From: a virus | Taxonomy: Duplodnaviria > Heunggongvirae > Uroviricota > Caudoviricetes | IMG/VR virus record: IMGVR_UViG_3300035698_013589 | Coordinates: 1 to 52,032 of that record | Reading direction: 5' to 3' (one strand) | DNA length: 52,032 nucleotides | Shown: piece after piece, positions 41,830-47,649 of the stretch | How positions within the stretch are numbered: the stretch's first letter is position 1 | Layout of the letters: each line of letters opens with the position of its first letter | Translations under genes and position numbers: made by a program | Notes under the pieces: generated by a model | Told to the model about the DNA's origin: nothing | The model's database searches: none | Seen by the model: the letters and a program-made list of their open reading frames with translations, nothing else

Positions 41830-44800
41830 ATGGTAAGGACAAAATTTAAAATGAAACCATTTCAGAGCCCGCAGAAAGCTATGCAAAAGCTAATGAAATC
41901 TGTGACTTCTACATCTTTACCTAAATATACATCCAGAGCAATGTTCAAAGGCCCTGGTTCTAAGATGCTTAATCAATTTAATATGAAGAATTTTGGTGGA
42001 AAAAATGATATGGACTTTGATGGTGTTTTTAACAATTTTGATTGCAGTCCGAAGAATCCAATGAGGCAAGATTTCACACCTTTTAGTAATAGTCAAGCAG
42101 CTGCAAAAATATCTGCAGCTAAACGATTTGGTGGTAAGAATCTTTCAAGACTTAAACAAATTGGCCAAGGAAGAGATAGGACAGTATATGCATTAGATAA
42201 AGATAAAGTAATAAAGATAGCTAAGAATCCAGGAGGGCTAACCCAGAATACATCTGAGAGTCAATTAGATTGGCCTACAGGACAGATAAAACATTATGAG
42301 ACAGGATTAGATTATGCAGTAATGGAACGTGCACAACCTCCAGGAAAGGCTACTACACAAATGCTCAGACATTTAAAGAAAGCAAGGGATGAAGCTGGCG
42401 GATATAATAAGCATCCAGATGCAGAACGTGCAGACTTCTTCAATTCTCCTCACTTTGATAAAACGCCAATAGACCCAACAGATTTCTCAAGTCATAGTGT
42501 AAATCCATCAGAGTTTACAGCTAAACGACAATGGGGTGAAAAGAATGGTCAACCAGTTTTAATTGATGGTGGAGCATTATCTGATGGTCAAGATTTACGA
42601 AGACATAGAATCAAACATTTTCAACAAGTAGCAAATATTGATAAATCTCAAGCTCCTCCATGGCAACTTGAAGAATGGCAAGAAGTTCAGAACCAAAGGA
42701 AAATATACAGAGACAAAGGTAGTGATAAAAAAGCATACCCCCAAACAACGACTAGATACGACGCAATGGCTGACTTCTTTAATAGTGATGACCAACTGAA
42801 AGGATATGAACCAGATGCAAGTGTTATGGAGGAGTTCTCTTCTCATCCAACTCAAAAGCGAGGTAGACTGAATGTTGGGCGTTGCCATGATGCTGCCGCA
42901 TGTATTGTAAGTGACGCATTTAACAAAGGTGTGCCTCTGAGCGATATTGAAGTTGTTGGTGTGCAGACTCCAAATCCAAAGAAAGAGGGTAATATTTATT
43001 CTAATCATATGGTCGCAAAAGTTCAGGGTAAATACATAGACCCAACCAAAACACAATTTGGTTATGATAATATAGTTTCAGATGAGTTGGACAAACATTA
43101 TGTTAATCCAAGGATTCAGAATAAAAAAGCATTTGTTAAAATGCCTTTAGATGAAGCATGGGAAAGAAGAAAGAAATGGGCTGGACCTGCTGGTATGAAA
43201 CCTAAACGTGAACAATACACAATGGACAGAATTGAGAAGTCGATTGATGATGGAACCATAGACCCAATAGAAGTTGACTATGAAGATTATAGAAAAGGTT
43301 ATTTGACTGATGGAAAACACAGACTAAATATATACAAAGACAAGGGATATAAAGAAGTTGATGTACAAATAAGAAACTTTCCAGAAACAAAATATTCAAT
43401 TAAATCAAAAAAAGAACCATCATCTTATAATGATGATATAATGATTAACAGATTTGAAACACCTGGTGGCAAGTTAGAGATAACTGAATATGAAGATAAT
43501 ACTGGAGCTGTGTCAAGACTTCATGTAGATGAAGATTATAGAAGACAAGGTATAGCGACAAATCTTTTAAATGAAGCAAAAGGTAAATATAAGAAAGTTC
43601 ATGCACAAGTTAGTAATATTCCTTCAGTTAAAACACATTTTAAAGCAGGGTTCAGGTTAGATGATAATCCTTATGCAACAGAAGAAGAATCTATTGAAGC
43701 ATACAAAAAAGCATCAACAGGCCCAGGTAGTATAGGAATGCAATATGAAAAAGGAGCTTCTTTAGAAAAACAACAAGAGTGGGCAAACAAATCACAATCA
43801 GATAGAACACAAGAAAGAGAATCAAAACCAGATAGAGATGGAGATAGAGTTCCAGATGAATATGATTGTGAACCTGATAATGTTATGGAGCAAGGCGCAT
43901 GGATGAAGAAGTATATTAATAAGAATATAAAAATCACAGATGATAGATATGCAGAATCAGTCCATGATGATATGAAAGACCTTTCTTCAATAACCACAAC
44001 ACGAAAAAAGGTAATAAGAAGTTTAGAAAAAAACCCAGCATTGAGAAATACTTTAATACAGGGTGGCATCAAAAAAATAAAGATAACAGATAGAGGAGAT
44101 GAATTTCAACATGGTTCATTTAATATTGATGATGGTGCTGATGAAATAGAACTTAGAGGAACTACTAGACCAGTATTAGATTTTAGTGGAGCAATATCAA
44201 TAAACAAATTAGGAAATGATGTTGGTATGAAATTTAATAAAATGCCAAAAAAGTTAGTCGAGCCAACAACAAAAGCCTTTATGACATATGGAAATGAAGG
44301 TTATGATGATACTGTTTCTAAATATTCAGAAAAAGAAAGAGAAAAAATAAAACACCAGGTTAGAAGAATGAGAACTGGTGCAGGGTTTGGACTTATAGCA
44401 ATGCCTCCAGATGTAGAAACAACATTAGGGCATGAAGCAGGGCATGTTGTTCAATATAAAGAAGGACTAGCAAAACCAAACGAAGAAAGAGATGTATATG
44501 AATACGCTGATTTAGAATATGATGTTGAACATAGGACAAGAGTTCCAACACTTAAAGAGTTAAAACAATCAGGAGATTTTAGAGGGTATGACGCTAACAC
44601 ACATGCAGAATATAAAAAGGCTTCTTTAAAAAAACAGCAAGAGTGGGCAAACAAATCTGATTCAGAAAAAGCTCATGAACGAGCTGAAGGTCCAGATACA
44701 GATGGTGATAAAGTTCCTGATGAATATGATTGTGAACCTGATAATACTATGAGACAAGATATTGTATATCATGGCACAACACCAATGGGCGCAATGCAAA

Positions 44801-45669: not shown

Positions 45670-47649
45670 ATGTTTGATATAGATAAGATACTCGGAAAGA
45701 AAAAAGGAAAGAAACCTGTTAACTTTACTAACATGACGTTATCAAGTACAATTGGAAACAACCCAGTGTCTAATCTATTACGAATGGCAACAACCACACC
45801 AAAGAAAGGTGCGGCTCCATTATATAAACAAAAACAATGGAAGATGTTTCCTCAACAAAAAAGGCAACAATTACGAATGAATTTTAAAGATACTGATGGT
45901 GATAGGATTCCAGACAAATGGGATTGTTCACCAAATAATGTAATGAAACAAGATTTCTCAGCAATAGACACAGGAGTTCCTGCATACACTTATCCAAGAA
46001 GTTATGGTTATAGGAGAAGAAAAGTTATGATGTCTCCTGATAAATTCATGCAACTTGCAAAGACAGGATACAGAGATGAAGCAAGTAGAAACATGTCTGA
46101 TGTAGAACACGAATCTAAAGTTATATCTCAAAGTAATGTTGATAGACTTAAACCAATCATAAAAAGCAGATATGGAAAAATGTCTGTTCCTGTGCTTGAA
46201 ACAAGTGAAGGACGTATAAAAGACCATGAAGGAAGACATAGAGCAATAGCTGCTAAACAGTTAGGAATAAAAGAAATTCCTGTTTATATGATGGAAGACC
46301 ATAAAGGTTATATCAAATCAAGAGAACAACGAAAACCAACCAAGGCACTGAAGTGGGAACAAAAAGACCCAAAGTTTGATAGTGAAGAAAGAGAATGGGA
46401 CCAATCAAGAAAAGCATTCAAACCATTCTCAGTTAAAGAAACTCCTCATATGAAATCTGTTAGAGAAAACCGTGGTTACACAGAACTAATAGAAGTTAAC
46501 CCAAAAGAGTTTAATAAACAATTTAAACAAAATCAAGATGAAGATATTGCATGGGATGATAGAAGACTTGATAGTGCGATGTATCGAGAAGAAGTTGATA
46601 GTTATCCTCAAGTTGATTACAATGCACAAAGAGATGTTGTTGATGTCAACGATGGGCGACATAGACTTGCTGCAGCAGAAATAAAGAATCAAAATATTAT
46701 GGTTGCAGTTAAACCAACTGGTGCTGAGTTAGCTAAACAAAAGGAATGGGCTAACATGCCTGTAGCACAAAAAAATAATATCAGAGCAACATCGTTAGAT
46801 TCAGATGGTGATAGAGTTCCTGATGAATATGATTGTGAACCTGAAAATACAATGAGGCAGGATATGAGATTTTCAAGAAGACCAAACAAAATGCCAGTAG
46901 ATGATTGGGAGAACACTAAACAAATTCTTTCTAAAACAACACATAAACAAAACACTTCTCTTGACCCTAAGATAAAGATGAATACAATTCTTAAACATGA
47001 TAAGGAATTAAAATCATTAGAAAAGGTTAATTCTTTTTTCAAGGACGACAAATGGCATGAGAAATATAATACTGAAGCATTTTCAGCTTTGAAGATGCAA
47101 GGTTATAATGATGATGATGCTACAGGATTTTTAGCTAATAAGAATAAAGTTAGAAACGAGACAGCTGCATTTTTTGCACAAGAGTTAGCTAAGGATGATA
47201 AGTTAGGGCATTTGTTCAAAGGTGCTATACCACTTGTTCCAATAACAAATGAAGAAGGCCGTGAAAGGCTTATCAACTATGGAAAAGAATCTCAACATAT
47301 TTCTGGCATTGGTATTGTAAAGAAAGTTGAACCTGTTAATCAACCAAAATTATTCAAAGATTTAGCTAGAGATGAACCAGATGATGATGACATCATGGAT
47401 GAAATGATGAATGATGATATGGAACAGTTTGAGTTTGAGCAAGAAGAACATGCTAAAAAGTTTCATAAACAATTGAAAGGTAAATCATATACAGACATGA
47501 CATTCAATGAAAGAGAGTTCTTTGATTCCATGGAAATTGATGGGATGAATAACTCGGAGATGAAGGAGTATTTTGATAAGCAGGCAGATAAATTAAAGAA
47601 AGCTGGTGTTGACCATGAACCAGACGATATAGGAGATGAAGGGTACTAA
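45670..47649 (+). CDS. Second polyvalent-like protein: two ParB/Srx-like domains, two tag motifs, acidic tail
   Basis: DHEGRHRAIAAKQLGIKEIPV and VNDGRHRLAAA; two DxDGD...DCxPxN motifs; AAGGAG RBS. Confidence 0.8.
   Translation: MFDIDKILGKKKGKKPVNFTNMTLSSTIGNNPVSNLLRMATTTPKKGAAPLYKQKQWKMFPQQKRQQLRMNFKDTDGDRIPDKWDCSPNNVMKQDFSAIDTGVPAYTYPRSYGYRRRKVMMSPDKFMQLAKTGYRDEASRNMSDVEHESKVISQSNVDRLKPIIKSRYGKMSVPVLETSEGRIKDHEGRHRAIAAKQLGIKEIPVYMMEDHKGYIKSREQRKPTKALKWEQKDPKFDSEEREWDQSRKAFKPFSVKETPHMKSVRENRGYTELIEVNPKEFNKQFKQNQDEDIAWDDRRLDSAMYREEVDSYPQVDYNAQRDVVDVNDGRHRLAAAEIKNQNIMVAVKPTGAELAKQKEWANMPVAQKNNIRATSLDSDGDRVPDEYDCEPENTMRQDMRFSRRPNKMPVDDWENTKQILSKTTHKQNTSLDPKIKMNTILKHDKELKSLEKVNSFFKDDKWHEKYNTEAFSALKMQGYNDDDATGFLANKNKVRNETAAFFAQELAKDDKLGHLFKGAIPLVPITNEEGRERLINYGKESQHISGIGIVKKVEPVNQPKLFKDLARDEPDDDDIMDEMMNDDMEQFEFEQEEHAKKFHKQLKGKSYTDMTFNEREFFDSMEIDGMNNSEMKEYFDKQADKLKKAGVDHEPDDIGDEGY
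45889..45954 (+). repeat. Tag motif copy (DTDGDRIPDKWDCSPNNVMKQD)
   Basis: Preceded by LYKQKQWK...; precedes the first ParB domain. Confidence 0.85.
46729..46863 (+). repeat. Tag motif copy (LAKQKEWAN...DSDGDRVPDEYDCEPENTMRQD)
   Basis: Follows the second ParB domain. Confidence 0.9.

Follow-up and report, generated by a model that had tools for sequence, protein, structure and literature searches.

Polyvalent proteins are known from phages and conjugative elements, those of phages being packaged and delivered (Iyer, Burroughs, Anand, de Souza & Aravind 2017, PMC5512222); they are scarce in archaea according to that survey, nearly all of those longer than 1000 aa being bacterial. The fusion of a conserved trafficking domain to variable effectors is likewise well known from polymorphic toxins such as MuF (PMC5576092; PMC12226406), and the internal proteins of phage T4 form a diverse, fast-evolving anti-host set that has only an N-terminal capsid targeting sequence (CTS) in common and allows foreign cargo to be loaded (PMC3012670). 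The present analysis concerns a locus that bears on this theme, found in a stretch of 52,032 nucleotides (the window) that makes up positions 1 to 52,032 of the IMG/VR virus record IMGVR_UViG_3300035698_013589, the complete record measuring 116,032 bp. Here a module of about 50-55 aa, referred to below as the tag, recurs within two multi-enzyme proteins, P0001 and P0002, and once more in a 782-aa protein of the structural operon. The evidence best supports the view of the tag as a conserved adaptor placed before a large, fast-shuffled effector repertoire.

By the definition of at least two conflict-type effector domains fused in one viral or plasmid polypeptide, P0001 and P0002 are polyvalent proteins: several such domains (ParB-like, ART, metallopeptidase, acetyltransferase) lie in a single viral chain, their order is heavily shuffled between relatives, and delivery with the DNA as well as possible processing has been proposed for both groups. 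What sets the present proteins apart is a predicted folded tag of about 55 aa that heads the cargo units and more than 100 single-cargo proteins; in the text of PMC5512222 the words ‘linker’, ‘calcium’ and ‘thrombospondin’ each occur 0 times. The resemblance to the T4 internal proteins lies in a variable cargo set behind one conserved N-terminal element. The T4 CTS, however, is a peptide of about 10 residues that attaches to the scaffolding core of an HK97-type prohead and that the prohead protease cuts away, whereas the tag is by prediction a folded domain of about 55 aa with a calcium-type loop, is repeated internally and occurs alongside hairpin-type capsid proteins; the T4 combination of a short cleaved N-terminal peptide with an HK97-type capsid and scaffold is not what is found here. 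MuF, for its part, belongs to tailed phages, where this large head-morphogenesis domain carries one C-terminal toxin and comes with an immunity gene; the tag is a tiny domain, unrelated to MuF and iterated, and immunity genes are not seen. The theme of a trafficking domain with variable effectors is therefore already known from polymorphic toxins, the T4 CTS and polyvalent proteins. New here are the uncatalogued domain, the way it is iterated within polyproteins, the existence of two subtypes that differ by position, its occurrence in a structural protein, and the type of host virus, which is large, probably archaeal, and equipped with hairpin capsid proteins. The first-pass annotation of the window, made from the sequence, knew of no such system in an archaeal virus, and literature searches found no description of a tagged effector system in archaeal viruses either.

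The tag copies were located by a six-frame regular-expression search together with a hidden Markov model (HMM) made from the copies. The two proteins and the copies are, in window coordinates:

41830-45270, plus strand: P0001, the 1146-aa polyvalent protein
41911-42075, plus strand: tag copy 1, P0001 aa 28-82 (E 4.6e-22; acidic core from 42007)
43735-43896, plus strand: tag copy 2, P0001 aa 636-690 (KQxEW at 43768; acidic core at 43831)
44599-44763, plus strand: tag copy 3, P0001 aa 924-978 (KQxEW at 44632; acidic core at 44695)
45670-47649, plus strand: P0002, the 659-aa protein
45793-45957, plus strand: tag copy 4, P0002 aa 42-96 (KQxEW at 45826; acidic core at 45889)
46705-46866, plus strand: tag copy 5, P0002 aa 345-399 (KQxEW at 46735; acidic core at 46798)
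19117-19281, minus strand: tag copy 6, aa 262-317 of the 782-aa protein (E 5.5e-27; core at 19185-19147)

These six copies, in three proteins only, are all that the entire 116,032-bp record holds, the HMM scan of it giving no seventh; their E values (1.3e-29 to 4.6e-22) are far beyond chance, and they are exactly the copies that the first-pass annotation had listed. Copy 1 is a degenerate N-terminal ‘FGGK’ subtype without the KQxxW helix motif, and copy 4 is the basic N-terminal subtype (PDKWDCSP). Copies 2, 3 and 5 are of the internal subtype, which in copy 2, the one that separates the GNAT domain from the zincin-like segment, has the acidic form PDEYDCEP. The three internal copies also contain an identical 23-nt core, GATGAATATGATTGTGAACCTGA, at 43855-43877, 44719-44741 and 46822-46844.

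From its N-terminus, P0001 consists of a leader, tag 1, a kinase-like, a Cys-peptidase-like, a ParB-like and a GNAT domain, tag 2, an HExxH zincin-like segment, tag 3 and an ART-like domain, while P0002 consists of an N-terminal peptide (MFDIDKILGKKK), a basic spacer, tag 4, two successive ParB-like domains, tag 5, a cargo of unknown fold and an acidic tail. The GNAT domain is a Pfam match, and the ParB-like label comes from phrog_1033 and ParB_N/SbnI matches in homologues. PARP/Tpt1 Pfam matches in the relatives P0006 and P0008, along with consistent weak matches to ART-toxin folds (Z 3-5), point to an ART-like domain. The kinase-like, zincin-like (HEAGH, between tags 2 and 3) and Cys-peptidase-like labels were assigned by inspection of motifs (HExxH, C..H..D) and are to be read as resemblances; phrog_4301 matches over P0001 aa 103-257. 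A short peptide, G[DN]P[IV]YEG[DY]L, lies at aa 1136-1144 of P0001 and at the C-terminus of its orthologue P0003, and the same peptide closes an unrelated basic protein of 145 aa whose gene lies just downstream in the relative locus L001 (12142-12579); it might act as an additional short signal for addressing or docking.

When P0001 and P0002 were compared with the family by BLAST, high-scoring segments typically started at the start of a tag and continued through the cargo behind it, from which it follows that tag plus cargo is a mobile unit. In P0001 the segments that move independently are the leader, tag and kinase-like domain (aa 1-300), which have many homologues that stand alone or are fused differently, the Cys-peptidase-like (304-436), ParB-like (430-519) and GNAT (512-639) domains, and the ART-like domain (979-1146). 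Residues 929-1144 of P0001 match P0150 and P0003, residues 347-547 of P0002 match the stand-alone proteins P0080 and P0129, to which tag copy 5 with its downstream cargo is equivalent, and the first ParB-like cargo of P0002 lies behind a tag in dozens of other proteins. The relatives P0003, P0006, P0008 and P0010 carry the same cargo in other orders, and at syntenic loci small neighbour genes encoding 136, 260 and 406 aa each open with a tag. As each tag-plus-cargo unit also exists elsewhere as a stand-alone gene, P0001 and P0002 are fusions of such units. The earlier proposal that the copies sit at domain boundaries is borne out in that every copy falls at a junction of independently mobile segments, as judged from BLAST boundaries among 150 relatives, and the ART-like IVYHGT of P0001, noted earlier as following the tag at once, begins at 44761, directly behind the Q-D of copy 3. 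The converse does not hold: the kinase-like, Cys-peptidase-like, ParB-like and GNAT domains (P0001 aa ~83-635) adjoin one another untagged, and the tag does not mark every boundary.

The wider family was drawn from an exhaustive profile search of 1.84 billion representative proteins, which matched 1,492 proteins at E<=1e-3; of these, 263 reach E<=1e-10, and some of the 1,492 are cellular proteins with thrombospondin type-3 (TSP3) repeats. Family statistics were taken from the best 150 of the 1,492 matches together with the proteins found earlier. Among these, at least 138 proteins have the full module and 17 the acidic core alone; it had been suggested that matches lying mainly in cellular secreted calcium-binding proteins would speak against a dedicated tag, but this is not the case, as such proteins match by the acidic core alone and amount to these 17 among the top 150. 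In 135 of 138 full-module proteins the first copy ends inside the first 135 residues (median 87). This leader position, together with the recurrence of tag-plus-cargo units as separate genes, upholds the idea of a reusable tag. In 68 of these 135 the extreme N-terminus has a peptide in common, [ILVFN][DN][KNDQ]x[ILMV] at positions 3-5 (type M-x-x-I-D-K-x-L), and the spacer between it and the tag is basic and of low complexity, with 15% K and only 3% D+E. A hydrophobic signal peptide is absent from all of them, as hydrophobic stretches within the first 70 aa never exceed 7 residues. Many members are only 81-350 aa long, with one tag and one cargo, and tags per protein become more numerous in longer proteins (1.0 under 200 aa, 3 beyond 900 aa). 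Copies near the N-terminus are basic, the 30 residues ahead of the acidic loop having a mean net charge of +6.6, and read P-[DN]-[KR]-[FW]-D-C-Q-P, whereas internal copies are near neutral (+0.3 over the same residues) and read P-D-E-Y-D-C-E-P. The cargo begins 0-6 residues past the QD and is rarely recognised by Pfam, a scan of 127 members giving HNH_repeat four times, ParB_N twice, and GNAT and a metallopeptidase once each.

The sources of the family are unclassified metagenomic contigs. A degenerate DNA pattern applied to 185,579 GTDB species genomes found five contigs, three of which encode high-GC bacterial TSP3-like proteins; full modules were present in one, a contig of 32% GC binned as ‘Rhodobacter’ and probably mis-binned, and no other cellular genome in that set yielded a full module by this pattern. 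The same pattern found one further contig with the module in IMG/VR, and a region search with residues 1-100 of P0002 added four extra proteins only. A contig of a Thermoplasmata metagenome-assembled genome (L010, 33% GC) has at 1741-2736 a 332-aa open reading frame (ORF) with the acidic core, then ..NFWRQD, and without the helical half; this frame, with the Thermoplasmatota structure neighbours described below, may be a hint of the lineage of the host or of where the loop came from.

What kind of module is the tag? The consensus of 100 aligned copies is G-A-S-x-x-K-Q-x-x-W-K-x-M-S-x-x-x-R-x-x-x-R-x4-D-x-D-G-D-R-V-P-D-x-x-D-C-x-P-x-N-x-M-R-Q-D, with no variation at D, D, P, D, C and Q and hardly any at A, Q, W, R, D, P and N; the residue after the invariant Q is D, G or H. 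It comprises a capping G-A-S, two short helices (Q..W and the conserved R), one DxDGDx[VI]PDxxDCxPxNxxxQD loop and a single Cys. In AlphaFold2 models the predicted local distance difference test score over the tag is 90-97 with the ART-like cargo attached and 84-92 for the tag alone, and both models have two short helices followed by an ordered loop; on the strength of this confident prediction the tag is modelled as a self-contained folded mini-domain and not as a disordered linker.

The first-pass annotation had likened the acidic half to calcium-binding TSP3 repeats, and profile, PDB and AlphaFold Database matches agree with this. In a profile search of the PDB the loop matches an OmpA-family protein with DTDGDGIPDKDD repeats (5wtl, E 1e-11), followed by dockerins, which are marginal (E 0.03 and 5.5), and calmodulin. 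The core-only, multi-repeat matches are bacterial secreted proteins with type IX secretion system sorting domains, among them one that scores for TSP_3 as well, and against AlphaFold Database clusters the tag-only model gives short, non-significant loop superpositions on thrombospondin- and dockerin-annotated proteins, the local superposition on such loops having a root-mean-square deviation of 0.3-3 A over 19-29 residues. The tag shares with TSP3 repeats, OmpA repeats and dockerins (PF02412; 5wtl, 2y3n, 4dh2) the D-x-D-G-D-x-[VI]-P-D-x-x-D loop followed by the Cys, Pro, Asn and Gln positions, so that by its sequence type the acidic half belongs with the TSP3/DxDxDG calcium loops, and it probably binds calcium. 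In other respects it departs from them. TSP3 repeats form tandem arrays with paired cysteines in secreted proteins, whereas the tag loops are single, are separated by entire cargo domains, have one unpaired Cys each, are preceded by a specific two-helix element, and occur in proteins that carry no signal peptide. The TSP_3 gathering threshold (25 bits) is not reached, the best of the six copies (copy 1) scoring 12.7 bits with E 0.1 and the other five giving no match, and only 1 of 127 family proteins matches TSP_3 at E<=1e-3. Type I dockerins, too, have a duplicated 22-residue F-hand and bind cohesin; here there is one loop per module and no cohesin-like partner was identified. For the entire module there is no model in Pfam, NCBIfam or PHROGs, and it corresponds to no solved fold; the tag-only model gave one match (Z 2.3) among PDB representatives, Foldseek with the tag and ART-like cargo gave no PDB match at E<=0.001, and a look-up of leader and tag in the ESM Atlas gave no score above noise. 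The Atlas structure neighbours of the tag include TSP_3-bearing Thermoplasmatota proteins.

The tagged proteins belong to a virus with a genome of 33% GC and strong codon bias, which is probably archaeal and of the spindle type. The features of its structural module that bear on the tag are:

178-402 and 447-671, minus strand: tandem genes for near-identical 74-aa two-helix hairpin proteins
17722-20070, minus strand: the 782-aa protein, low-complexity and Q-rich, of the structural operon, cotranscribed with a 5294-aa adhesin and adjoining the genes that resemble major capsid protein genes
20087-20398: a 103-aa hairpin protein with a homologue in the relative locus L015 (57% identity)

The 74-aa proteins are candidate spindle-type major capsid proteins, and nothing in the structural arm was recognised by Pfam or PHROG scans as an HK97 capsid, portal, prohead protease or scaffold; both observations agree with the spindle-type reading of the first-pass annotation. 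No match to the 74-aa protein was found in the IMG/VR relative G001, although so short a protein makes this search uninformative.

Several lines of evidence connect the tagged effectors with this structural module. The first is a promoter-like element with the core ATATATAAATG[AG][GT], which occurs five times in the 116-kb genome, its single plus-strand occurrence (41797-41809) lying before P0001:

41795-41813, plus strand: promoter-like element AGATATATAAATGAGATAG, ending about 17 nt before the P0001 ATG
725-737, minus strand: promoter core about 54 nt upstream of a 74-aa capsid-like gene
17705-17717, minus strand: promoter core a short way upstream of the adhesin ATG (adhesin/782-aa operon)
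26905-26917, minus strand: promoter core a short way upstream of the ATG of the 510-aa operon
33652-33664, minus strand: promoter core
45267-45623, plus strand: three tiny ORFs between P0001 and P0002, all with orthologues in L001 (12524-12981)

This ATATATAAATGAG promoter class is thus common to structural genes (the capsid-like gene and the adhesin/782-aa and 510-aa operons) and to the P0001 operon. The element is kept before orthologous tagged genes in L001 and L002-L004, with a variant (AAAGG for AAATG) in L014, and in each of these relative loci of about 20 kb it is the only one of its kind or nearly so. Since no promoter element or T-run intervenes, P0001, the three tiny ORFs and P0002 appear to form one operon. 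The first of these ORFs encodes a 24-aa CxxC..CxxC zinc ribbon, its ATG overlapping the P0001 stop, the second encodes a 49-aa protein, and the third a 39-aa protein that opens with the family N-terminal peptide (..IIDKMLGK..) and ends in EDCEKK. The called start of P0006 (L002 9993-10003; also in L003 and L004) is an ATG inside the promoter element (..ATATATAAATG), and the true start is probably a downstream Met. The second line is the tag in the 782-aa protein itself, which is found again in its homologues in L015, in L008/G001 (an IMG/VR virus with terminal repeats) and in P0117. The third comes from L015, whose homologous structural module has the tagged genes for P0014 (three tags) and P0098 immediately upstream of it, reading in the same direction.

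On this basis of promoter, tagged structural proteins and the L015 adjacency, the most likely job of the tag is to mark proteins for incorporation into the virion, the enzymes arriving with the DNA; we hold this reading tentatively, at an even chance or a little under. The first-pass annotation had proposed a virion-loading or docking tag, and the evidence that has accrued to that proposal is circumstantial. A co-fold of the tag region of the 782-aa protein with an effector tag scored 0.03, with the fold of both chains uncertain, and speaks neither for nor against it. The basic evolutionary unit is tag plus cargo, optionally with the N-terminal peptide and basic spacer in front, and P0001 and P0002 consist of such units fused head to tail, hence the internal copies of the tag. 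These units are carried by uncultivated viruses of low GC, probably archaeal and of the spindle type, with a cargo set that includes ART-like, ParB-like, kinase-like, GNAT and peptidase-like domains and many unknown ones. On the loading reading, the tag would address this cargo and the 782-aa structural protein to the virion, and the enzymes would be co-delivered with the DNA. A loop of calcium type is in keeping with proteins that are outside the cell for part of their existence, and the tag could conceivably take up its metal in the calcium-rich medium there and loosen once in the calcium-poor cytoplasm. Such a calcium switch is speculative, and the compound proposal, a cargo-loading address of a spindle-type archaeal virion that also keeps the enzymes docked outside and releases them in the cytoplasm on entry, is in our estimate doubtful.

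A number of observations weigh against virion loading. The presence of tagged proteins in the virion is something that we infer, the tag has no known binding partner, and its probable calcium binding is read from sequence. The genes for P0001 and P0002 are placed outside the structural arm, in the replication arm, among genes for RNase_T, NYN, YdjM, a PDDEXK-helicase and dUTPase. If one N-terminal tag suffices for loading, the well-conserved internal copies need further explanation. The same cargo domains occur untagged in a related virus (P0004 and P0011; L005/L006) that keeps the N-terminal peptide, which means that the tag is dispensable; the N-terminal peptide may be the real address. Finally, six members (P0040, P0049, P0057, P0060, P0064 and P0069) end in a truncated internal-type tag with no cargo behind it.

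Two features of these exceptional proteins may be recorded here. The six terminal tags are cut off or decayed after PDEYD, and in P0040 (L002 13006-14226) the truncation is real, as the stop codon lies inside a long contig. The tag-less P0004 (L005/L006 10001-14071) has a junction peptide, [EG]IK[QNE]D.[TS]S[EG]NK, at aa 544, 774, 910, 1140 and 1240, two pairs of these peptides deriving from tandem duplication of the metallopeptidase unit; by its sequence it is a candidate cleavage site.

The last observation touches on another reading, namely that the tag is a processing module, which is compatible with virion loading and which we consider unlikely. A protease would recognise the C-terminal x-[RK]-Q-[DGH] or the N-terminal G-A-S, cutting the polyprotein into single effectors and removing the leader; it could be viral or of the host, possibly the zincin-like or Cys-peptidase-like domain of the same protein. 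The invariant Q followed by D, G or H in all aligned copies and the onset of cargo so soon after the QD are what such a site would look like, but the tag is confidently predicted to be folded up to its C-terminal end, the cargo abuts it with no flexible linker, G-A-S suits a helix N-cap, and the spacing from Q to D is what we take to be the expectation of the TSP3-like repeat consensus (Pfam PF02412). The HExxH and C..H..D segments recognised by inspection in P0001 would offer a ready activity, yet most tagged proteins have a single cargo, most are without a peptidase domain, and a conserved protease gene was not found. The five junctions of P0004 (IK[QN]D.[TS]SENK) again present K-Q-D, although two of the five are tandem-duplication copies. 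Cutting driven by a metallopeptidase has also been proposed for polyvalent proteins (PMC5512222). A calcium-dependent, self-cleaving Asp-Pro module of the FrpC type was entertained and dropped, the tags being without a conserved Asp-Pro bond.

It is distinctly unlikely, in our judgement, that the tag is an intracellular address or assembly element, by which unpackaged effectors are sent through the basic leader and tag to viral or host DNA, a replication compartment, a host structure or a multi-enzyme body. The strongly basic N-terminal copies as compared with the neutral internal ones, the lysine-rich spacer, the location of the tagged genes in the replication arm and the need of the cargo enzymes for cytoplasmic cofactors would all be in keeping with it. 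Loops of the DxDxDG/TSP3 type, on the other hand, are typical of extracellular, calcium-rich settings, and such an address does not account well for the promoter held in common with structural genes, for tags in structural-operon proteins, or for the tagged genes within the structural cluster of L015. Least probable of all is a passive spacer or recombination joint, an insulating mini-domain with a DNA core that aids cassette shuffling and no addressing role, for while the identical 23-nt core, the freely varying cargo order and the tag-free lineage might be cited for it, it leaves unexplained the near-N-terminal tag in 135 of 138 proteins, even those with a single cargo, the distinct N-terminal and internal subtypes, and the tag in a non-enzymatic structural protein. 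The 23-nt identity was set aside as weak evidence of cassette recombination, given the strong codon bias of a 33% GC genome.

To return to the adaptor and its effectors, virion-delivered polyvalent effectors are a major theme of phage-host conflict that has been reported as scarce in archaea, and here one small domain, confirmed as a full module in at least 138 proteins, organises a set of effectors whose functions are for the most part unknown. The tag domain offers a sequence handle for mining effectors from metagenomes, and also helps to recognise a group of viruses that IMG/VR barely holds. If the loading reading is true, it would provide an entry to protein packaging in spindle-type virions and a candidate tag for foreign cargo; and if the tag should prove to be both loading address and calcium switch, archaeal viruses would have their first described system of effectors delivered by the virion, and the tag would be portable.

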